A stretch of DNA of 64,000 nt, from positions 1,440,001-1,504,000 of the forward strand of contig OX638340.1 of NCBI GenBank assembly GCA_951812955.1, in the 5' to 3' direction. This DNA is from an uncultured Gemmatimonadota bacterium (lineage in GTDB: Bacteria > JAAXHH01). Shown in pieces: positions 1-56,639 of the stretch. The notes beneath the pieces are model-generated. The model had not been told where the DNA came from. It searched no databases and saw only the letters and a list, made by a program, of their open reading frames with translations. Each line of letters starts with the position of its first letter. Position 1 is the first letter of the stretch. Made by a program: the position numbers and the translations under genes.

Positions 1-1323
1 CGTCCTATCCTGATCGGGACGACCTCCGTCGACGCATCGGAGACGCTGAGCCGCATGCTGAAGCGGCGGGGGATAAAGCACAACGTGCTGAACGCCAAGT
101 TCCACCAGCAGGAGGCCGAGATCATCGCGAAGGCCGGGCAACCCGGCTCCGTGACCATCGCCACGAACATGGCGGGCCGGGGAACCGACATCAAGCTCGG
201 TACGGGTGTGGTGGATACCGGCGGGCTGCACATCGTCGGGACCGAACGCCATGAAGCCCGGCGAATCGACCGCCAGCTTCGCGGACGCTCCGGACGCCAG
301 GGTGACCCGGGGTCCTCGCGTTTCTACCTATCGCTGGAGGATGACCTGATGCGGCTCTTCGGCTCCGAGCGCATCGCCTCGGTCATGGACCGTCTGAAGA
401 TACCGGACGGGGAGGTGATCGAGCACTCCATGGTGACCCGGTCCATCGAACGGGCCCAGAAGCGTGTGGAGGCCCAGCACTTCGACATGCGTAAGCACGT
501 GCTCGAGTACGACAACGTCATGAACCAGCAGCGCGAAGCCGTGTACGATCGCCGGCTGCACGCCCTGGAGCGGAAAGACCTCAGGAACGACGTGATCGAA
601 ATGATCCGCGGGGTGGCGGAACGGAAGGTGGAAGAATACACCGATCCCAAGACGTATCCCGAGGACTGGGACCTGGACGGGTTGAGCGGCGACCTCGCCC
701 GGAACTTCCACGTCGCCGTGGCCGTGGCCGAAGAGGAAATGGCCGATCTGAACGTGGAATCGCTGGTGGAACTGGTCAACGAGAAGATGCTCGAATCCTA
801 CGAGCGGAAAGAAAAGGCGCTGGCGCCTTCGCCCGAGCTGATGCGCGACCTGGAGCGGTTCGCCACCCTGCACGTCATCGACAACGCCTGGCAGGAGCAC
901 CTGTACGAAATAGACCGGATGCGGGAGGGCATCGGCCTGCGCGCGTACGGCCAGCTCGATCCCCTGATCCAGTACAAGAAGGAAGCCTACGCCATGTTCG
1001 AGGAGTTGTGGGACCGGCTGGACGAGGAGATCGTCAAGACCGTCTTCAACGCCGAACTTGCCGAGTCCCGCATGCCGCGCCAGGAAACCCCGACCAACAT
1101 GCGGACGATCCACCAGGAAGCACCGGCCATGGCCGGCATGGCCGCGGAAGATCCCGATACGGGCGGCGCCGTCCAGCGGGGTGGAAGGCGCGACGCGGCT
1201 TCGGACGGGAGCTCATCCCGGTCGCGGCCCGTCAAGGCCGAACAGAAGATCGGCCGCAACGCACCCTGTCCATGTGGGAGCGGCAAGAAGTACAAGAAGT
1301 GCTGCGGGGCGGGCATCGCCTGA
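1..1323 (+). CDS. secA: Preprotein translocase SecA, C-terminal part (5' end outside window)
   Basis: In frame from base 1; SecA helical scaffold/wing motifs and C-terminal zinc finger CPCGSGKKYKKCCG; stop at 1321-1323. Confidence 0.95.
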   Translation, partial: RPILIGTTSVDASETLSRMLKRRGIKHNVLNAKFHQQEAEIIAKAGQPGSVTIATNMAGRGTDIKLGTGVVDTGGLHIVGTERHEARRIDRQLRGRSGRQGDPGSSRFYLSLEDDLMRLFGSERIASVMDRLKIPDGEVIEHSMVTRSIERAQKRVEAQHFDMRKHVLEYDNVMNQQREAVYDRRLHALERKDLRNDVIEMIRGVAERKVEEYTDPKTYPEDWDLDGLSGDLARNFHVAVAVAEEEMADLNVESLVELVNEKMLESYERKEKALAPSPELMRDLERFATLHVIDNAWQEHLYEIDRMREGIGLRAYGQLDPLIQYKKEAYAMFEELWDRLDEEIVKTVFNAELAESRMPRQETPTNMRTIHQEAPAMAGMAAEDPDTGGAVQRGGRRDAASDGSSSRSRPVKAEQKIGRNAPCPCGSGKKYKKCCGAGIA

Positions 1324-1331
1324 GGTGCTCT

Positions 1332-1416
1332 GACCAAAGCCGTCCGTAGCCCAGATCGCACCTGTCAGATCGCACCTGCCCGGCCATACCTGTCGGACCA
1401 AAGCCGTCCGTAGCCC
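1332..1416. repeat. Intergenic direct repeats: 21-bp gaccaaagccgtccgtagccc x2 (1332-1352, 1396-1416) flanking tandem cagatcgcacctg x2 (1352-1378)
   Basis: Read directly in the convergent secA / ABC-ATPase intergenic region. Confidence 0.8.
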
Positions 1417-1482
1417 CGACTGCCACATATCCCCTCAATCGCATCTGCCCGAACGCACCTGCCGGTTTACCGGGATGCCGGC

Positions 1483-2259
1483 CTATTCCTCCTCGGCGCC
1501 GATCTGGCCCAGATCCAGGTCCAATTCCTCGCGGCGCTGGTTCTTGGTGATCCTTCCGTCCTGTACCCACAGGATACGGTCCGAGACGTCCAGCATCTTC
1601 AGATCGTGGGTAGCGGAAATGATCGTGACCTGTTTTTCCTGGTTCAGTTCCCGTAACAATTCGATGATCTCCCGGCCCGTCTTGCGATCCAGGTTCCCCG
1701 TGGGCTCGTCCGCGAGGACGATGGCCGGATCGTTGGCCAGGGCGCGGGCCACGGCAACGCGCTGCTGCTGGCCGCCTGACAGTTCCAGCGGCTTGTGCTG
1801 GACCCGTTCTCCGAGGCCCACCAGCGACAGCAGGTCGACGCCCTTGTCGATCGCCTCGTCCGTCGCCAGGCCAGCGAAAATCATCGGCAGGGTGACGTTT
1901 TCGAGGGCGGTCATGACCGGAATCAGGTTAAAGGTCTGGAAGATGTAACCGATCTTGCGGCACCGCAGCCAGGCCAGTTCATAGGCGTCCAGCTGGGCGA
2001 CGTCGACCTCGTCGATATAGACCTTGCCCTCTGTGGGCTTGTCCAGTGCGCCGATCATGTTGAACAGAGTGGACTTACCCGAACCGGACGGACCCATGAT
2101 GGAGATGTACTCCCCGCGCTGCACCTCCATATCGATGCCTTTGAGCGCTTCCAGCGAAAGCTTGCCCATTTCATACACACGCTTTACGCCCCGCGTGCGT
2201 ACGATATTCTGTGTTGCGGTGTACTGCGCGTCCACTACCGCGGTCTGCTCTTCTGTCAT
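1483..2259 (-). CDS. ABC transporter ATP-binding protein (LolD/MacB-type)
   Basis: Walker A GPSGSGKST, signature LSGGQQQRVAVARAL, Walker B ILADEPT; ATG with AAAGGGG SD. Confidence 0.9.
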   Translation of the reverse strand: MTEEQTAVVDAQYTATQNIVRTRGVKRVYEMGKLSLEALKGIDMEVQRGEYISIMGPSGSGKSTLFNMIGALDKPTEGKVYIDEVDVAQLDAYELAWLRCRKIGYIFQTFNLIPVMTALENVTLPMIFAGLATDEAIDKGVDLLSLVGLGERVQHKPLELSGGQQQRVAVARALANDPAIVLADEPTGNLDRKTGREIIELLRELNQEKQVTIISATHDLKMLDVSDRILWVQDGRITKNQRREELDLDLGQIGAEEE

Positions 2260-2329
2260 TTCCCGCCCCTTTCAGGTTGCTTTCAAACTGCTTACGATCC
2301 TGCATGGTATTCCGGGTGTGTTCCGAGTG

Positions 2330-2992
2330 TCAGACCTCCGTGCGCATGGCGTCGGCCGGAGGCATCTGGGATGCCCGGTACGCGGGGTACAGCGCTCCGA
2401 TGATGGCGAGACCCAGCCCGGCCCCCAACGAATACAGGCCACTCCACGCCACATCCGCCACGGGAAAGAGCACCAGAGGGTCCCATCCGTAGGAGGTCAT
2501 CATCGAAATCAGCATGAAAAGGCAACCCAGTATGACCCCGCCCACCGATCCGACCAGTCCCTGGAAGGTGGACTCCAGCACGAACAGCTGAATGATGAAC
2601 TTGTCCAGGGCCCCAAGGCATTTCATGGTCCCGATCTCACGGTATCTTTCGGTCACCGACATCAGCATGGCGTTCGTGATGCCGACGACGCACACCAGCA
2701 GCGAGAGGGAAACGAGCCATACCTGCTGAGTCGCCGAATCGCCGTCCGCACCTTTCTGTTCCAGCAGTGCGCGGACCTGGGGGGAACCGCTATCCACCAG
2801 CGCTTCATTGATGGATGCTCCAGTCAGAATGGACATGAGAAAGGCGATGCCGAAAAAGATCCCACCGATCGTGATAAGCGACCGCCAGAACCTTATCTTC
2901 AGGCTGCGGAAACTGATCTCGATCGCCTTGGACAAGGGCAGTGATATTTGTTTCTCCGTCGTTCCGGCCGTCGCGGCCGATTCCGTCGTCAT
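2330..2992 (-). CDS. ABC transporter permease, minimal FtsX-like family (220 aa)
   Basis: N-terminal TM helix plus C-terminal FtsX-type 3-TM bundle; ATG overlaps upstream stop as ATGA. Confidence 0.8.
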   Translation of the reverse strand: MTTESAATAGTTEKQISLPLSKAIEISFRSLKIRFWRSLITIGGIFFGIAFLMSILTGASINEALVDSGSPQVRALLEQKGADGDSATQQVWLVSLSLLVCVVGITNAMLMSVTERYREIGTMKCLGALDKFIIQLFVLESTFQGLVGSVGGVILGCLFMLISMMTSYGWDPLVLFPVADVAWSGLYSLGAGLGLAIIGALYPAYRASQMPPADAMRTEV

Positions 2993-3453
2993 GCGTTTCT
3001 ATCTCCTTTTCTGTTTGCCACGGCCAGTCCGATCAAGCCCTTCTCCGTGAGTTGTTTCAGGTACGTCAGCGTGGAGACTTCCGCTTCCTTGCGTTCCAGT
3101 TTGTATTCGGTCCGGATTGTAGATATGACGTGGTCCACCGTATTCTGCCCATCGCAGAGCCCCCAGAGGAAGGACCCAATGCGGTCCAACACAACCGTTC
3201 GCCGGCTCGGTACGTAAAAAAACCGGGACATGCTGTTGATCCACCAGGTCTTTCTCCTCGGGATCCCCAGTACGATTTCCCCGTCGGAGTTTTCTTCGCA
3301 GGTCAGTCTTTCGTTGCGTACCGGCTTTGCGCGCAACAAATCCCTGCGGGGCAAAGGGGACTGTTTCTTACGAAAGAACTGCATGGTTATGACCCGTGGG
3401 AAAGATCCCGGCAATGAACTAGGGATGCGCACATCCCGTGATATCAATGGCAA
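2989..3453 (-). CDS. PqqD-family protein (RiPP recognition element-like)
   Basis: PqqD-like core DGEIVLG...NSMSRFFYV...LDRIGSFLWGLCDGQNTVDHVISTI...KQLTEKGLI; start codon uncertain (TTG 3453, GTG 3432 or ATG 3384). Confidence 0.7.
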   Translation of the reverse strand: MPLISRDVRIPSSLPGSFPRVITMQFFRKKQSPLPRRDLLRAKPVRNERLTCEENSDGEIVLGIPRRKTWWINSMSRFFYVPSRRTVVLDRIGSFLWGLCDGQNTVDHVISTIRTEYKLERKEAEVSTLTYLKQLTEKGLIGLAVANRKGDRNA

Positions 3454-4388
3454 ATCACCGTGCCAGCTATACCGTCCAGGTAATCGGGCCGGAGCTTCTC
3501 GTCCAGGTGCCGCAACACGAATATCTTATTGCCATCGATACAATGCCAGCTGCAACAACTCAATGGTTTTTTTCGGGACCGCCGCCACGGCAGCCAGGTC
3601 ATGCGAGTGTGCACCGTCTCGGGATCCACGCCTTCGCCCGTTCCCCGGATGGACGGATGGCCGTGATAGGATCCGGCTCCGTCAGTCCAGTGGTCGATCT
3701 CGTTTCCGTAAGTGGCCTGGAACCAATCCGGGAAGGTACGGTTCTCCAGATGCATTTCGGCGAGGCTCATCCTCACCAGTTCCAATCTGGCGCTACCGAG
3801 CTGGAAAGTCAACTCGATACGGCCCGTCAGAAAGGAATGCTGCACGAGTGCGTAGTCGGACGGGAGCTCTATGTGCAGCCCGTAAACCGCCCAGGTGGCG
3901 TTGTCGCCGCGCGCGTGGTCGTCCAGGGTATTCAGCAACCTCGAGGCCCGGGTCATCATGGATTCTCCCCCGCGCCCGAGGACCTGGGCGAAGACCGTGC
4001 GCCCGCAGGTTTCGCACATCCACAGGCAACCATAGGCCTGCAAGGGATCCGGCCCTTCCGTCCGCCAGTGGAACCCCTCCACCGTCCTGTCCGCCAGCGC
4101 GGACTCCGCCTTGATGAGCCCCAGGTCCCGCCGGACCTTCACGGGAGGCCCCTTCTTTCCGGCCTTTCCCGTGATGTTCTTAAGATATCTCGAGACAACC
4201 TGGTCGACGGGTTCCCGCCCCCGGGTGCGCTCCCACCTCAGTTCGAAACGCGGCATTTCCGTATCGTCGAGCCGCAGGTAACCCGATGAATGATCTCCCG
4301 TTACCGCGCCGATGCTCCAATCTTCCGGCCGCTCGAACGACAGGTGATGCCAGCCGGTGACCGCCCATTTCGATGCGACTCGATTCAT
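3444..4388 (-). CDS. Hypothetical Cys-rich protein (about 315 aa; CxxC and CCxxHC motifs)
   Basis: Long ORF in a packed operon; ATG at 4388 overlaps pgsA stop (ATGA); no family recognised; ORF-track start at 4655 would overlap pgsA and is rejected. Confidence 0.55.
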   Translation of the reverse strand: MNRVASKWAVTGWHHLSFERPEDWSIGAVTGDHSSGYLRLDDTEMPRFELRWERTRGREPVDQVVSRYLKNITGKAGKKGPPVKVRRDLGLIKAESALADRTVEGFHWRTEGPDPLQAYGCLWMCETCGRTVFAQVLGRGGESMMTRASRLLNTLDDHARGDNATWAVYGLHIELPSDYALVQHSFLTGRIELTFQLGSARLELVRMSLAEMHLENRTFPDWFQATYGNEIDHWTDGAGSYHGHPSIRGTGEGVDPETVHTRMTWLPWRRSRKKPLSCCSWHCIDGNKIFVLRHLDEKLRPDYLDGIAGTVICH

Positions 4389-4951
4389 GTGTACGAACGC
4401 TCCCGGATGAGCCGCGCGAAACCAAGGACGTAATGGATGCCCGACCCGGCGACGCAGCAGAGGGCTGCCCAGAGCGCCCACGCTCCGTAGGGCTGCCAGT
4501 CCACGGCATAAAGAATGAGGGCGCTGCCCATGGCCAGCGTGGTCAATTTGCCGATCCGGTCGGCCGGCAGGACCACGTTGCCCGGTCTGAAGTAAAGATA
4601 CGCGCCCGCGCCCAGAATGGACAGGTCGCGGGCGATGATCAACGCGGCCGCCCACAGTGGGAAGTCCCGATACAGCACCAGGAAGACCGACAGGCTACCG
4701 ACCAGGATCTTGTCGGCCAGCGGGTCGAGGACAAGCCCCCATTTGCTTTCCCAGCGGAAGCGGCGCGCCAGGAAACCATCGGCCGCGTCCGTCAGAAAGG
4801 CGCAGCCGATGAGCGCGTAGAGAGCCAACTGCGCATCCCCTGCGAAACCCCAGTAAATGAACGGAACAGCGGCTATGCGTGAGAGGGACAGGATGTTTGG
4901 CGGCGACCAGAACCCTCGCGCCCTTCCGCTCCGTCCGGTATTCGGGCTCAT
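4385..4951 (-). CDS. pgsA: CDP-diacylglycerol--glycerol-3-phosphate 3-phosphatidyltransferase (CDP-alcohol phosphatidyltransferase)
   Basis: Motif DAADGFLAR...GLVLDPLADK; multi-TM; ATG with AAGGA SD. Confidence 0.85.
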   Translation of the reverse strand: MSPNTGRSGRARGFWSPPNILSLSRIAAVPFIYWGFAGDAQLALYALIGCAFLTDAADGFLARRFRWESKWGLVLDPLADKILVGSLSVFLVLYRDFPLWAAALIIARDLSILGAGAYLYFRPGNVVLPADRIGKLTTLAMGSALILYAVDWQPYGAWALWAALCCVAGSGIHYVLGFARLIRERSYT

Positions 4952-4970
4952 GCCGCCGTCCTTCGCGAGC

Positions 4971-6680
4971 TCACACGGCCGCCGTGCGCCGAAGCATCTC
5001 GCGTGCGTGCGAGATGGCCATGGCGTCCACTGTCTCCCCGGCCAGCATGCGCGCGATCTCCCGGATCCTGCCGTCCTCGTCCAGATGATCGACCAGCGTG
5101 ACCGACCGGCCGCGAGCCGACTGCTTGTGCACGGTAAAATGCGTACGGCCCCAGCAGGCCACCTGGTGGAGATGGGTGATGCAAAGCACCTGGTGGTCCC
5201 GGGACAGCAGCTTTAACCGGTGCCCGACCGATTCGGCGATGCGTCCACCGATGCCGATGTCCAACTCGTCGAATACCAGCGTCGGCATTCGGTCCGATTC
5301 GGCCAGAATCACCTTGAGCGCCAGCATGATGCGCGAGATCTCCCCGCCGGACGCGATGTTCGCCAACGGTTTCAGGTCCTCGCCGGAATTGGGCGATATC
5401 AGGAATTCGATCCGATCTATCCCGTGGGCGTCGACGCTGTAGCCGCGCCCGTCGATCCGCAAGGGACCTTCTTCGGCTTCCCGCCATTCGATACCGACAC
5501 GGAATCCCGTCTTCTCCATGCCCAGTTCCGCCAGTTCCGCAATCACCCTTTTCTCCAGCCTGCTCGCCACCTGTTTACGCCGGTCCGACAGGGTTTTCGC
5601 CCGTTCGGCCAGTTCTTCGCGGGCCGCTTCCACCTCCGAGCGCAAACTGCTTCGATGCTCGCCGGCCGTGTCCATCTGTTCCAGTTCTCCGGCGATACGG
5701 CCACGGTAGGCCAGGACTTCCTCGATCGTGGCGCCGTACTTGCGTTTGAGCCGACCGAGAAGGTCAAGGCGGTCCAATACCTCTTCCAGGCGCGCCGGGT
5801 TGTAGTCCACGCGGTCGCGGTAGCGCCGAAGGAAGTCGGCACAGTCGTCTAGATGGTAGCGCGCGCTCCGAATACCCTCGAGGGCCTCGCCGAGTGCGGG
5901 GTCTATGCGCTCCGCTTCCTCCAGCGAACGGATGACCCGGACCAATCCGTCGACCAGGGCGCCTTCCCCTTCAGAGAGCGCCTCGGAAGCGTCGGATGCG
6001 ATCTGGACCAACTGTTCAGCGTGCTCGAGGACGGACCGCTCCCTTTCGAGTTCTTCGTCTTCTCCCGGGGACAATTCAGCCTGGTCGAGCTCTTCCAGCT
6101 GAAAGCGGTAGAGATCTTCCCTTTCCCGGGTGGCGGCGAGACTGTCTTCCATCCGCCGCAGGGCTTCCGACCGCTCGGTGAAAAGGTGGTAGGCCTCGGC
6201 GACCCGTTGCTTCGGCGCTCGGACGTCCTCGTAACCGTCCAGAAAGTCCCGGTGCGTCCGCGGATTCAGCAGCGACTGGTGATCGTGCTGTCCGTGCAGA
6301 TCCACCAGCAGGACGCCCAGTTTCCTGAGAACGGAAACGGTGACCAGGCTGCCGTTTATCGTGCACCGGTTGCGGCCGTCGCGGGCCACCTCCCGTCGGA
6401 TGATCAGCATGCCTTCTTCCGGGTCCACGCCGATTTCCACCAGCAGGGCCTGCAACTGCGCGTCGTGCTCCCCTTCGAACAGCCCCTCGACGATGGCGGT
6501 CCGTGTGCCGCCGCGTATGGACTCGGACGCGGCCCTGTCGCCCAGAATGAGGCCCAGCGCGCCGATCAGGATGGACTTGCCGGATCCGGTTTCACCCGTG
6601 AGCACGTTCAGTCCGGAGGTGAACTCGATGTCCACCTCGTCCAGCAGCGCGTAGTTTCTGACCCTCAAGTTCGCGAGCAT
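4971..6680 (-). CDS. recN: DNA repair protein RecN
   Basis: N-term MLANLRVRNYALLDEVDIEF...GETGSGKS, coiled coil, C-terminal SMC-like signature; ATG 6680 preferred over TTG 6689. Confidence 0.92.
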   Translation of the reverse strand: MLANLRVRNYALLDEVDIEFTSGLNVLTGETGSGKSILIGALGLILGDRAASESIRGGTRTAIVEGLFEGEHDAQLQALLVEIGVDPEEGMLIIRREVARDGRNRCTINGSLVTVSVLRKLGVLLVDLHGQHDHQSLLNPRTHRDFLDGYEDVRAPKQRVAEAYHLFTERSEALRRMEDSLAATREREDLYRFQLEELDQAELSPGEDEELERERSVLEHAEQLVQIASDASEALSEGEGALVDGLVRVIRSLEEAERIDPALGEALEGIRSARYHLDDCADFLRRYRDRVDYNPARLEEVLDRLDLLGRLKRKYGATIEEVLAYRGRIAGELEQMDTAGEHRSSLRSEVEAAREELAERAKTLSDRRKQVASRLEKRVIAELAELGMEKTGFRVGIEWREAEEGPLRIDGRGYSVDAHGIDRIEFLISPNSGEDLKPLANIASGGEISRIMLALKVILAESDRMPTLVFDELDIGIGGRIAESVGHRLKLLSRDHQVLCITHLHQVACWGRTHFTVHKQSARGRSVTLVDHLDEDGRIREIARMLAGETVDAMAISHAREMLRRTAAV

Positions 6681-6810
6681 AGGCTGCAAAATGAACGGCG
6701 AGACCGGGTGGGACCGAACGGGCCGGATGGACCGTGCAGAACCGGACGGGACCAGGCGCGGCCGGGTGCCGCCGGACGCGGCCGGGAAGGCCCGCTGATT
6801 CCCGGGGTCT

Positions 6811-7698
6811 TCAGCGTTCTCCCCATTTCAGTTTCGTACGCAGGACGTCGTAAAAGGACCGATCCGAAAAACGGATCAGGTGTATGGTGTGGTCCGCCCG
6901 GTAAAGCTCGACGGTGCTGCCCGGCTGGATGACCACGTTTTCCTGGCCGTCCACGGTGAGCAGGAGATCAGGATGATCGGCCGTGACTTCGATCCGTACG
7001 CGGTCCCGCGCCGCGAGCACCATGGCCCGGTTGGACAGGGTGTGCGGACAGATGGGCGATACGACGATCGCTTCCATACCGGGCGCCAGAATCGGCCCGC
7101 CCGCCGCCAGCGAATAGGCCGTGGACCCGGTCGGCGTCGATACGATGAGCCCGTCCGCCATGACGTCGTTGACGTATTCGTCGTTGACGTAGATGCCCAG
7201 TTCGATGACCCGGCATATTGATCCCTTGTCGATCACGATATCGTTCAATGCCGAAAACACGCCGGCCGCCGCCGCGTCCCCCGGGGTTCCGTTACCGATC
7301 CGACCTTGCAGGACCAGCCGCTTGTCCAGCGAGTATTGCCCGTCGAATACCTGTTCGATGGCTTCGTCCAGTTCGCCGGGCGTCGTCTGCATCATGAAAC
7401 CGAGCTTACCGGAATTGACGCCGAGAATGGGCGTTCCGGAAGCGCCGACCAGACGGGCGGTCTTGAGCAGCGTACCGTCCCCGCCTATGGCGATGACCCA
7501 GTCGACGTCCTTCACGGCGAGTTCGTCCGAATCGACGATCACGCACGCCCGGCGGCCGGTCTCATCTCTGACCATGGCCGCAAGGCCGGCCGCGAGCGAT
7601 GGTTTTCCGGACCGTGACGAGAGCAGCCGCACAAGCTCGGGGATCAGGTGGCTGACCACGGGGCGGGCCGGATTGGCGATGATGCCCACGCGATGCAT
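6811..7698 (-). CDS. nadK: NAD(+) kinase
   Basis: GGDGTLL motif, NAD kinase fold; ATG overlaps ispA-like stop (TGATG). Confidence 0.9.
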   Translation of the reverse strand: MHRVGIIANPARPVVSHLIPELVRLLSSRSGKPSLAAGLAAMVRDETGRRACVIVDSDELAVKDVDWVIAIGGDGTLLKTARLVGASGTPILGVNSGKLGFMMQTTPGELDEAIEQVFDGQYSLDKRLVLQGRIGNGTPGDAAAAGVFSALNDIVIDKGSICRVIELGIYVNDEYVNDVMADGLIVSTPTGSTAYSLAAGGPILAPGMEAIVVSPICPHTLSNRAMVLAARDRVRIEVTADHPDLLLTVDGQENVVIQPGSTVELYRADHTIHLIRFSDRSFYDVLRTKLKWGER

Positions 7699-25492: not shown

Positions 25493-25550
25493 TTCGGTGA
25501 AATTCGAGGCACTGTCCTCGAATGGTTCGCGCAGTATCAGCGGGAGTAGC

Positions 25551-25622
25551 TCAGCGGTAGAGCATCACCTTGCCAAGGTGAGGGTCGCGGGTTCAAGCCC
25601 CGTCTCCCGCCCTCGGACGTGG
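25551..25622 (+). tRNA. tRNA-Gly (anticodon GCC)
   Basis: Cloverleaf folded by hand: acceptor GCGGGAG/CTCCCGC, anticodon loop TTGCCAA, T-loop TTCAAGC. Confidence 0.9.
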
Positions 25623-25630
25623 CGGCATAG

Positions 25631-25702
25631 CCAAGTGGCTAAGGCACGGGACTGCAAATCCTCGATCGCCGGTTCGAATCCGGCTGCCGCCTTGCTTTTT
25701 CT
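25631..25702 (+). tRNA. tRNA-Cys (anticodon GCA)
   Basis: Acceptor GGCGGCA/TGCCGCC, 3-bp D-stem, anticodon loop CTGCAAA, discriminator U. Confidence 0.9.
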
Positions 25703-56384: not shown

Positions 56385-56456
56385 TAGCGGTACGGGGAAT
56401 CGAACCCCGGTTTGATGGCTGAGAACCACCCGTCCTAACCACTAGACGATACCGCC
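56385..56456 (-). tRNA. tRNA-Glu (anticodon CTC)
   Basis: Folded by hand: acceptor GGCGGTA/TACCGCT, anticodon loop TTCTCAG, T-loop TTCGATT. Confidence 0.8.
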
Positions 56457-56568
56457 GCGTTGCTCTTGACGAAAATACCCCATTTACCGGCCATAGTCAA
56501 GTATCCGGGCCGGCTTTTATATCGCTTCGAAGACGTAAAATCCTCTACGGGCATGGCAAGAATGTGAA

Positions 56569-56639
56569 CTGGGGGGCAGGGATTCGAACCCCGATTCCAT
56601 GGTCCAGAGCCATGTGTCCTACCCTTGAACGACCCCCCA
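56569..56639 (-). tRNA. tRNA-Gln (anticodon CTG)
   Basis: U1-A72 acceptor TGGGGGG/CCCCCCA, anticodon stem CATGG/CCATG, loop CTCTGGA, discriminator G; matches the bacterial tRNA-Gln architecture. Confidence 0.88.

Follow-up and report, generated by a model that had tools for sequence, protein, structure and literature searches.

The window analysed here is a 64,000-nucleotide stretch from an uncultured Gemmatimonadota bacterium (contig OX638340.1, positions 1,440,001 to 1,504,000). It carries a four-gene cassette encoding a protein without a Pfam family (protein X), a PqqD-like protein, a very short FtsX-type permease (mini-FtsX) and an ATP-binding cassette (ABC) ATPase. The PqqD-like protein has the fold of an RRE, the recognition element of ribosomally synthesised and post-translationally modified peptides (RiPPs). 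We find that X–PqqD–mini-FtsX–ABC is a widespread membrane ABC machine of uncultivated bacteria, undescribed so far. At a probability of about 0.5, the four genes at 1483–4388 are a local copy of a Type VII (MacB/FtsX-type) ABC envelope machine, with the RRE-fold protein as a cytoplasmic adaptor.

The cassette belongs to six closely packed open reading frames (ORFs) at 1483–6689 on the minus strand, running from recN through the ABC ATPase gene:

4971–6689, minus strand: recN, the ORF upstream of the pgsA-like gene
4385–4951, minus strand: pgsA-like CDP-alcohol phosphatidyltransferase, 188 amino acids (PF01066, E 1.3e-30)
4385–4388, minus strand: ATGA stop/start overlap of the pgsA-like gene and X, read from the sequence
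3444–4388, minus strand: protein X, 314 amino acids, no Pfam family above threshold
4005–4016, minus strand: C125-x2-C128 codons of X, a CxxC knuckle on a beta-hairpin, first half of the Cys/His set
3540–3545, minus strand: H282-C283 codons of X, second half of the Cys/His set together with C313-H314
3447–3452, minus strand: C313-H314 codons, the C-terminal residues of X, second half of the Cys/His set
2989–3384, minus strand: PqqD-like RRE-fold protein, 131 amino acids (PF05402), start ATG 3384
2989–2992, minus strand: ATGA stop/start overlap of the PqqD-like gene and mini-FtsX, read from the sequence
2330–2992, minus strand: mini-FtsX permease, 220 amino acids (PF02687, E 1.3e-21, residues 95–212)
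1483–2259, minus strand: ABC ATPase, 258 amino acids, a MacB/LolD/FtsE-type nucleotide-binding subunit (PF00005, E 8.2e-34)

The first-pass annotation of this DNA had named five co-directional genes here, and the ORFs and Pfam agree with its domain calls, as does the sequence with its two ATGA overlaps. Two of its measurements change. X has 314 residues, not 315, and the 10-nucleotide overlap of X with the PqqD-like gene at 3444–3453 rests on a TTG start at 3453 (154 amino acids) that the homologue alignment rejects. All 16 of 16 aligned homologues, down to 40% identity and 131–137 amino acids long, start at the equivalent of ATG 3384 (M-x-F-R-K-K). The overlap is therefore an artefact of ORF calling, and the real gap is 59 nucleotides. 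Intergenic gaps in the window operon are 19, 59 and 70 nucleotides, and the X–PqqD gap in sister genomes ranges from 20 to 180. The overlap or near abutment of the PqqD-like gene with mini-FtsX is also found in other lineages (L050, 6643–7017/7001–7663; L141, 8637–9008/9001–9636). The ATGA between the pgsA-like gene and X is not kept even within the clade, where gaps of about 60–160 nucleotides occur (L014–L016, L018–L023).

The recurrent unit is X–PqqD–mini-FtsX–ABC, not the five-gene set. Related loci were gathered by exact look-up of distant homologues and by two scans, one of species-representative genomes (45 loci) and one of metagenomes using a five-sequence alignment (80 loci); six reference protein families were then mapped onto all collected loci. 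Where there was enough flank, X lies immediately upstream of the PqqD-like gene in 80 of 93 loci and mini-FtsX immediately downstream in 54 of 92. When contexts were sampled via mini-FtsX instead, the PqqD-like gene was upstream in seven of nine. A census of 75 non-redundant loci with enough flank gave the architectures below, in which "giant" is a large MacB-type permease and "OPT-like" a polytopic membrane protein:

pgsA–X–PqqD–mini-FtsX(–ABC): 28 of 75 loci, all from the window's clade
giant–OPT-like–X–PqqD, then an unrelated gene: 21 of 75
full string giant–OPT-like–X–PqqD–mini-FtsX–ABC: 9 of 75
PqqD–mini-FtsX only: 5 of 75
OPT-like–PqqD–mini-FtsX: 4 of 75
X–PqqD–mini-FtsX: 3 of 75
PqqD alone: 3 of 75
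rearranged, with mini-FtsX and ABC genes upstream of X–PqqD: 2 of 75

The window's clade consists of marine and sponge-associated metagenome-assembled genomes labelled Latescibacterota or Gemmatimonadota. The six-gene string was seen in L001, L060, L064, L115, L120, L121, L124, L126 and L132, and full strings have one ATPase gene per two FtsX-type genes. Three loci from peat metagenomes (L133, L135, L136) have the order ABC–mini-FtsX–ABC–X–PqqD, in which the ATPase genes on either side of mini-FtsX differ from each other. On a Latescibacteria contig (L059, 6283–9463), a mini-FtsX/ABC pair sits behind a gene for a CtpB-like S41 peptidase, with neither a PqqD-like gene nor X adjacent.

The gene string recurs in lineages whose X proteins are only 30–35% identical and whose flanking genes differ. 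This leaves next to no probability that unrelated genes were brought together by chance in a compact genome. Tight packing and overlapping stops are indeed common throughout the window, as that explanation would have it, but it is refuted by the presence of the same string in 45 species genomes and 80 metagenome loci. Conservation outside this genome, on which the first-pass annotation had made its proposal depend, holds for the four-gene core, and for pgsA within the window's clade only. Its description of an uncharacterised export or modification module is still a fair one, and neither of the two outcomes it had named as counter-evidence, a failed PqqD profile match or a neighbourhood confined to this genome, was found.

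pgsA is a clade-specific neighbour and not a conserved part of the module, although it had been annotated as a member. The pgsA-like protein matches PF01066 at 107 bits (E 1.3e-30), and its best model is TIGR00560 pgsA (79.1 bits against a cut-off of 109.1). The gene stands upstream of X only in the window's clade, at 28 of the 75 loci; elsewhere its place is taken by OPT-like and giant genes, lpx genes or others. Upstream in the window follow recN, NAD kinase, polyprenyl synthase, xseB/xseA and RNase Y. Downstream, secA is convergent with the cluster and ends at 1323, just beyond the ATPase gene, while in L003 it lies about 2.5 kilobases (kb) away, past two unrelated genes.

We consider it rather unlikely that the cassette is a lipid or lipoprotein trafficking module tied to PgsA, in which the transporter would flip or extract a phospholipid, a lipid A-related lipid or a lipoprotein, and X would hand over the lipid. 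The overlap of pgsA with X in the window favours such a link, as does the clade-wide order, kept down to 46% X identity. However, recN, NAD kinase, polyprenyl synthase and xseAB are also kept in order in the clade, so the pgsA linkage is best seen as general synteny, and pgsA is missing from the neighbourhood outside that one clade. Elsewhere the module does lie behind lpxC/lpxA/lpxI or next to lptFG and mla genes, which again fits lipid trafficking, but the RRE fold would be left without an obvious role in lipid handling.

Outside the window's clade, several copies of the cassette lie among genes of envelope biogenesis. In L141 (1225–9636) and on contig P0174, X–PqqD–mini-FtsX–ABC closes a bamA–skp–lpxC/fabZ–lpxA–lpxI string, and the 291-amino-acid protein of this bamA–lpx context is a member of the X family (E 1e-74). 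Upstream of the cassette in L057, L058 and L140 is ftsY, with lptFG abutting, and mlaDEF is present too in L057 and L058. Directly after the cassette ATPase gene, at least three separate lineages carry a GAF-GGDEF gene of the diguanylate cyclase type (L050, 8516–9730; L057, 10578–11564; L140, 10491–11513; L141, 10391–11602), which the window's clade and most metagenome loci lack. This neighbour hints at a link with cyclic di-GMP.

The PqqD-like protein has an RRE-type fold. It matches PF05402 (PqqD) with 44.7 bits, the gathering score being 23.4 (E 1.7e-11, profile positions 10–67 of 67), which bears out its first assignment, and precomputed annotations place 27 of 29 homologues in PF05402 as well. 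In the predicted model, the N-terminal strands of the RRE sheet precede three helices, giving the three-stranded sheet and three-helix winged-helix of solved RREs and a close match to leader-binding B1 proteins. A very basic, conserved N-terminal tail and an 18-amino-acid insertion between strands 2 and 3 are further features. Neither this protein nor X has a hydrophobic segment, and both are thus predicted to be cytoplasmic.

It is improbable that the PqqD-like protein, instead of binding peptides, binds DNA as a winged-helix regulator of the ABC operon and has X as its sensor partner. The RRE fold derives from winged helix-turn-helix regulators, which are known false positives of RRE searches (PMC7470986), and the basic tail would also agree with such a role. 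Yet the PqqD profile score lies above the gathering score, the model has RRE-type strands ahead of its three helices, and the gene overlap with the permease is more typical of complex subunits.

RRE/PqqD-fold proteins are a class-independent marker for RiPP gene clusters, but the usual RiPP partners are missing here. The PqqD-like protein falls below the cut-off of every specific PqqD-family NCBIfam model. For PqqD of pyrroloquinoline quinone (PQQ) biosynthesis (TIGR03859) it reaches 24.9 bits against 46, and no pqq genes are in the neighbourhood; for lasso B1 proteins (NF033536) it reaches 30.5 bits against 80, and there is no lasso cyclase or B2 protease within 10 kb. The locus therefore matches neither the PQQ nor the lasso layout, as the first reading of the sequence had held. 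That reading had also remarked on an FtsX/ABC pair beside a PqqD-like gene without a RiPP enzyme, and no RiPP enzyme was found near the cassette in the window operon or in related loci. A search for precursor peptides, proposed earlier as a check, gave no conserved small ORF, either among ORFs of at least 40 amino acids upstream of the giant gene (13 loci) or among ORFs of at least 30 amino acids downstream of the ABC gene (24 loci). Clustering of these ORFs returned only a DUF6785/DUF6784 membrane protein and the GAF-GGDEF gene. Thus, neither a modifying enzyme nor a precursor gene, such as would be expected beside an RRE, was found next to the PqqD-like gene.

A RiPP-like or signalling pathway that depends on the RRE is an unlikely explanation, but one for which several observations speak. 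The PqqD-like protein would bind the leader of a precursor encoded elsewhere, X would modify or chaperone the peptide, the OPT-like protein and the FtsX/ABC transporter would move it through the envelope, and the M28-like ectodomain of the giant permease would handle its N-terminus. The close match to leader-binding B1 proteins is in favour, and X and PqqD are tightly coupled, with genes that often overlap, like RRE/enzyme pairs. According to RRE-Finder, thousands of discrete RREs have no known partners and perhaps belong to unknown classes, and lasso machinery is missing for about half of the sequences that match the discrete lasso-type RRE model (PMC7470986). The present PqqD-like family may account for some of the latter. 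Against a peptide pathway, there is no conserved small ORF in or beside the cassette, and the window operon has no room for one. X is also missing from PqqD–mini-FtsX–ABC in some lineages (9 loci). Furthermore, the 68–81% identity of the ATPase and the housekeeping envelope neighbours are unlike sporadic biosynthetic gene clusters.

By its predicted structure, X is a cytoplasmic, internally duplicated protein of the PsbP/Mog1 fold. The model, built from an 18-sequence alignment (mean predicted local distance difference test, pLDDT, 86.8; predicted template-modelling score, pTM, 0.83), has fold-level similarity to PsbP, Mog1 and DcrB-like proteins. The two halves are mutually homologous (hhalign probability 94%, E 1.5e-7): D157-H158 of half 1 is aligned to C313-H314 of half 2, and the hairpin of C125 to that of H282-C283. 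X had been called unrecognisable, which is right in that it has no Pfam family; its fold can, however, be recognised from the predicted structure.

Conserved polar residues of X comprise C125, C128 and H158 in half 1, H282, C283, C313 and H314 in half 2, and H244. C125 and C128 are invariant across the 18-sequence alignment. Among 90 family members, C125 is found in 78, C128 in 76, C313 in 87, H314 in 79, C283 in 81 and H282 in 71. To call X Cys-rich was thus an overstatement, although C125, C128, C283 and C313 are indeed conserved. This Cys/His site probably binds metal. From the model, we read X as a binding or scaffold protein stabilised by metal and not as an obvious enzyme. For a peptide-modifying role, one may point to His158, His244 and His282, which beyond the four Cys could form a catalytic metal site. 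The fold of X is common to the lipid binders LpqN and DcrB, which would suit lipid trafficking, but these act outside the membrane, whereas X and the PqqD-like protein are cytoplasmic.

Several other assignments of X were rejected. A radical SAM reading (C121-x3-C125-x2-C128) fails on the PsbP-like fold, on the absence of a Radical_SAM match and on C121, which is found in only 24 of 90 family members and is not conserved, so the radical-SAM-like spacing in the window is accidental. A match to DUF1450/PRK13669 is below threshold (15 bits against 30) and limited to the CxxC turn. X has no homology to the C-terminal cytoplasmic domain of the giant permease (hhalign probability 0.2%), and none of six candidate longer X homologues is an X–PqqD fusion. 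The X family is large, with 1,564 clusters at 50% identity in an exhaustive profile search (E<=1e-3), 820 of them with E<=1e-10. This overturned our earlier view, from a word-indexed search that returned 26 proteins, of X as restricted to a lineage. The notion that X is optional was partly withdrawn, X being present in 80 of 93 loci.

The transporter subunits are of the MacB/LolD type, and the permease is reduced to its membrane part. Mini-FtsX matches PF02687 at 77.3 bits, and hydropathy gives four hydrophobic segments (about 37–58, 91–112, 140–165 and 185–205). Helices 1 and 2 are only about 30 residues apart, with no Porter/Sabre periplasmic domain between them. According to a review, the Porter subdomain occurs in every known Type VII ABC member (PMC5985334). 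The roughly 30 residues outside the membrane cannot hold one. We regard the cassette as a Type VII ABC system that has accessory subunits without precedent and a permease in which the Porter subdomain is missing. A family search returned 6,709 proteins with E<=1e-10, not necessarily all mini forms. The best 120 of these are 168–231 amino acids long (most 208–231) and 51–100% identical, and 51–61% identical from rank 32 on. The small size noted in the first-pass annotation is thus unusual among characterised Type VII permeases, but it is shared by a family of thousands.

All motifs of the ATPase are intact: Walker A GPSGSGKST (residue 56), signature LSGGQQQR (160), Walker B LADEPT (182) and H-loop ATHD (216). 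It is 68–81% identical to ATPases of the same cassette in distant lineages. Its top NCBIfam matches are LolD, MacB, DarD, DevA, YbbA and FtsE, all below cut-off, and the permease, nearest to the MacB and LolC/E models, likewise misses the equivalog cut-offs. LolD is reached at 234.2 of 307.75 bits and lolCE at 46.8 of 362.45; FtsE at 200.5 of 264.85 and FtsX_Gneg at 29.5 of 255. LolCDE is the closest characterised relative of both subunits, which would fit lipid or lipoprotein trafficking, but the scores fall far short of the cut-offs of the LolC/E, LolD, MacB and FtsE/X models. Among PADLOC defence models, X and the PqqD-like protein are unmatched, and the transporter subunits give generic ABC/FtsX domain matches only.

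In many other lineages, two large membrane proteins join the functional unit, their genes standing upstream of X in a single operon-like string. The giant permease (in L057, 1,482 amino acids at 2189–6637) has an N-terminal signal anchor followed by an extracytoplasmic region of about 770 amino acids with an M28-like domain. Next come three helices, then a MacB-type unit in which the MacB periplasmic core domain stands between helix 1 and helices 2–4, and last a cytoplasmic tail of about 160 amino acids. The M28-like domain (L057 residues ~225–330) gives weak alignments with both the aminopeptidase YwaD (E 0.003) and nicalin (E 0.019). The alignment has Tyr in place of the first zinc-ligand His and no Glu-Glu pair, and the ectodomain is probably a pseudo-peptidase, as far as its sequence tells. 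The recurrence of peptide-related families, namely OPT-like and M28-like proteins and MacB-type peptide exporters (PMC5985334), would suit a peptide pathway, but the apparent replacement of the zinc-ligand His and the Glu-Glu pair weighs against one.

The OPT-like protein is a polytopic membrane protein of about 665 amino acids without a family. Only three of 24 members touch Pfam OPT (PF03169), with a best E of 3.8e-4, below the family threshold, and sequence searches of the PDB gave no match among solved structures. In a Latescibacterota lineage with larger genomes, OPT-like proteins carry an insertion of about 160 amino acids (828 against 665 amino acids; L031, 4469–6955, and other class-B loci). 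L033 (487–5504) has two tandem OPT-like paralogues. A DUF6785+DUF6784 membrane protein of about 645 amino acids is encoded just upstream of the giant gene in L060 (667–2595), L064 (32–1972), L098 and L126, and hhalign gives it weak similarity to the OPT-like protein.

We propose the following mechanism for the envelope machine. The ATPase dimer would drive an FtsX-type pair, which would be a homodimer of mini-FtsX or, in lineages with the giant permease, a mini/giant heterodimer. Such a heterodimer, putative for this genome, would be of the LolC/LolE style, with mini-FtsX as the partner without a periplasmic domain. ATP hydrolysis would be turned into mechanical work at the membrane's outer face. 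As a dedicated cytoplasmic adaptor, the RRE-fold protein would clamp a short peptide segment of a partner subunit or client protein by strand addition, and X would thereby be tethered to the transporter. Recurrent neighbours (bamA–skp–lpxC/A/I, lptFG, mla, ftsY, secA and, here, pgsA) suggest that the machine would have a housekeeping role in envelope biogenesis, of outer-membrane lipid or lipoprotein, and not in natural-product synthesis.

A number of observations weigh against this proposal. Twenty-one loci have X–PqqD with giant and OPT-like genes but no adjacent mini-FtsX/ABC, and L059 and L140 have mini-FtsX/ABC without an adjacent PqqD-like gene; since each pair occurs without the other adjacent, the parts of the cassette are separable. 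Physical association of the proteins is inferred from gene order. The giant and OPT-like genes are absent from the 64-kb window and from within 8 kb in 28 sister loci, and the relationship to OPT is a weak one (three of 24 members, as above). The envelope-gene context is anecdotal, at about five of eight independent contexts. Moreover, we know of no characterised Type VII transporter that needs a cytoplasmic accessory, and a mini-FtsX homodimer, having no Porter subdomain, would perform "mechanotransmission" without the usual output domain. We found no publication on the function of the cassette, and nothing relevant in the literature on PqqD with FtsX or MacB, on FtsX with M28 and OPT, or on DUF6785.

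A broader reading, which we hold tentatively and a little short of even odds, is of a widespread envelope machine of uncultivated diderms that has recruited an RRE fold from RiPP biosynthesis as a fixed subunit or client adaptor on the cytoplasmic side of a Type VII ABC transporter, and that could stand in for or complement Lol, Lpt or Mla. This machine would further comprise a tandem PsbP/Mog1 protein that binds zinc, a permease of the nicalin-like pseudo-peptidase kind and the OPT-like protein, and one permease half would have lost the supposedly universal Porter domain.

Other features of the window were also recorded. G+C content drops to 0.557–0.58 across the PqqD-like gene, mini-FtsX and the 3' part of X (window positions 2000–4000), against 0.63–0.65 in the flanks; membrane-protein composition or a different history could be the cause. 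In a scan of 1200–7000 for promoters and terminators, counts were not above those of shuffled sequence. Rfam matches in the window are four tRNAs only, as adjacent pairs at 25540–25692 (plus strand) and 56385–56639 (minus strand).

In this cassette, a discrete RRE-fold protein would have a genomic context that is consistently outside RiPP biosynthesis. The "orphan RRE" problem raised by RRE-Finder would be explained in part by a large RRE family whose fixed partner is an FtsX/ABC transporter and not an enzyme. Mini-FtsX contradicts the published generalisation that every Type VII permease has a Porter subdomain, and bears on mechanotransmission. The cassette is abundant, with 1,564 clusters of X, thousands of mini-FtsX family members and ATPases 68–81% identical across lineages. 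Given its position beside bamA, lpx, lpt, mla and sec genes, and as its lineages have no cultured model, the cassette may supply a part of envelope biogenesis that has so far been missed across a large share of uncultivated bacteria. New Pfam families can now be defined for two of its proteins, X and the OPT-like protein, as neither belongs to one.

Among known systems, the nearest to the PqqD-like protein are the discrete RREs PqqD and the lasso B1 proteins TbiB1 and TfuB1. Unlike theirs, the PqqD-like gene adjoins no pqqA/B/C/E, lasso cyclase, B2 protease, radical SAM enzyme or precursor gene; the protein has the extra basic N-terminal tail and 18-amino-acid insertion, and it is constantly partnered by a transporter and a PsbP-fold protein. 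The nearest fold relatives of X are PsbP/Mog1/DcrB-fold binding proteins, a group that takes in Eag/SciW, which are cytoplasmic and chaperone type VI secretion effectors, and TplEi, an immunity protein with tandem domains.

Nicalin is a catalytically inactive M28-like subunit of the BOS/multipass translocon complex of the eukaryotic endoplasmic reticulum. The giant ectodomain resembles it in keeping the (H/Y)YD and GADS motifs without the Glu-Glu pair, but the E-values are weak, the giant is fused to a MacB-type permease, and no functional link is implied. Curiously, a membrane machine of bacteria here parallels a factor that inserts membrane proteins in eukaryotes.

With MacB, FtsEX and other Type VII "mechanotransmission" ABC systems, the cassette shares the FtsX C-terminal domain, the four-helix topology, the MacB-type ATPase (separate or fused) and an ER(Y/F)REIG coupling segment between helices 2 and 3. 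It differs from these in the mere 30 or so residues between helices 1 and 2 of mini-FtsX, from MacB in having no gene for a MacA-like adaptor or TolC, and from FtsEX in that its proteins do not reach the FtsE and FtsX models.

LolCDE is a Type VII ABC system of two permeases, LolC and LolE, with a LolD dimer. Unlike it, the cassette has one permease with essentially no periplasmic domain and another of about 1,480 amino acids with an M28/nicalin-like ectodomain, and Lol is without cytoplasmic RRE-fold or PsbP-fold partners and without an OPT-like protein. The likenesses are nevertheless extensive. In both, a gene for a MacB/LolD-type ATPase adjoins genes for FtsX-fold permeases, and the full cassette has two distinct FtsX-type subunits per one ATPase gene, as LolC and LolE have with LolD. 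LolD is the best NCBIfam model for the ATPase, as lolCE and MacB are for the permease, and the cassette often has envelope-biogenesis genes as its neighbours.

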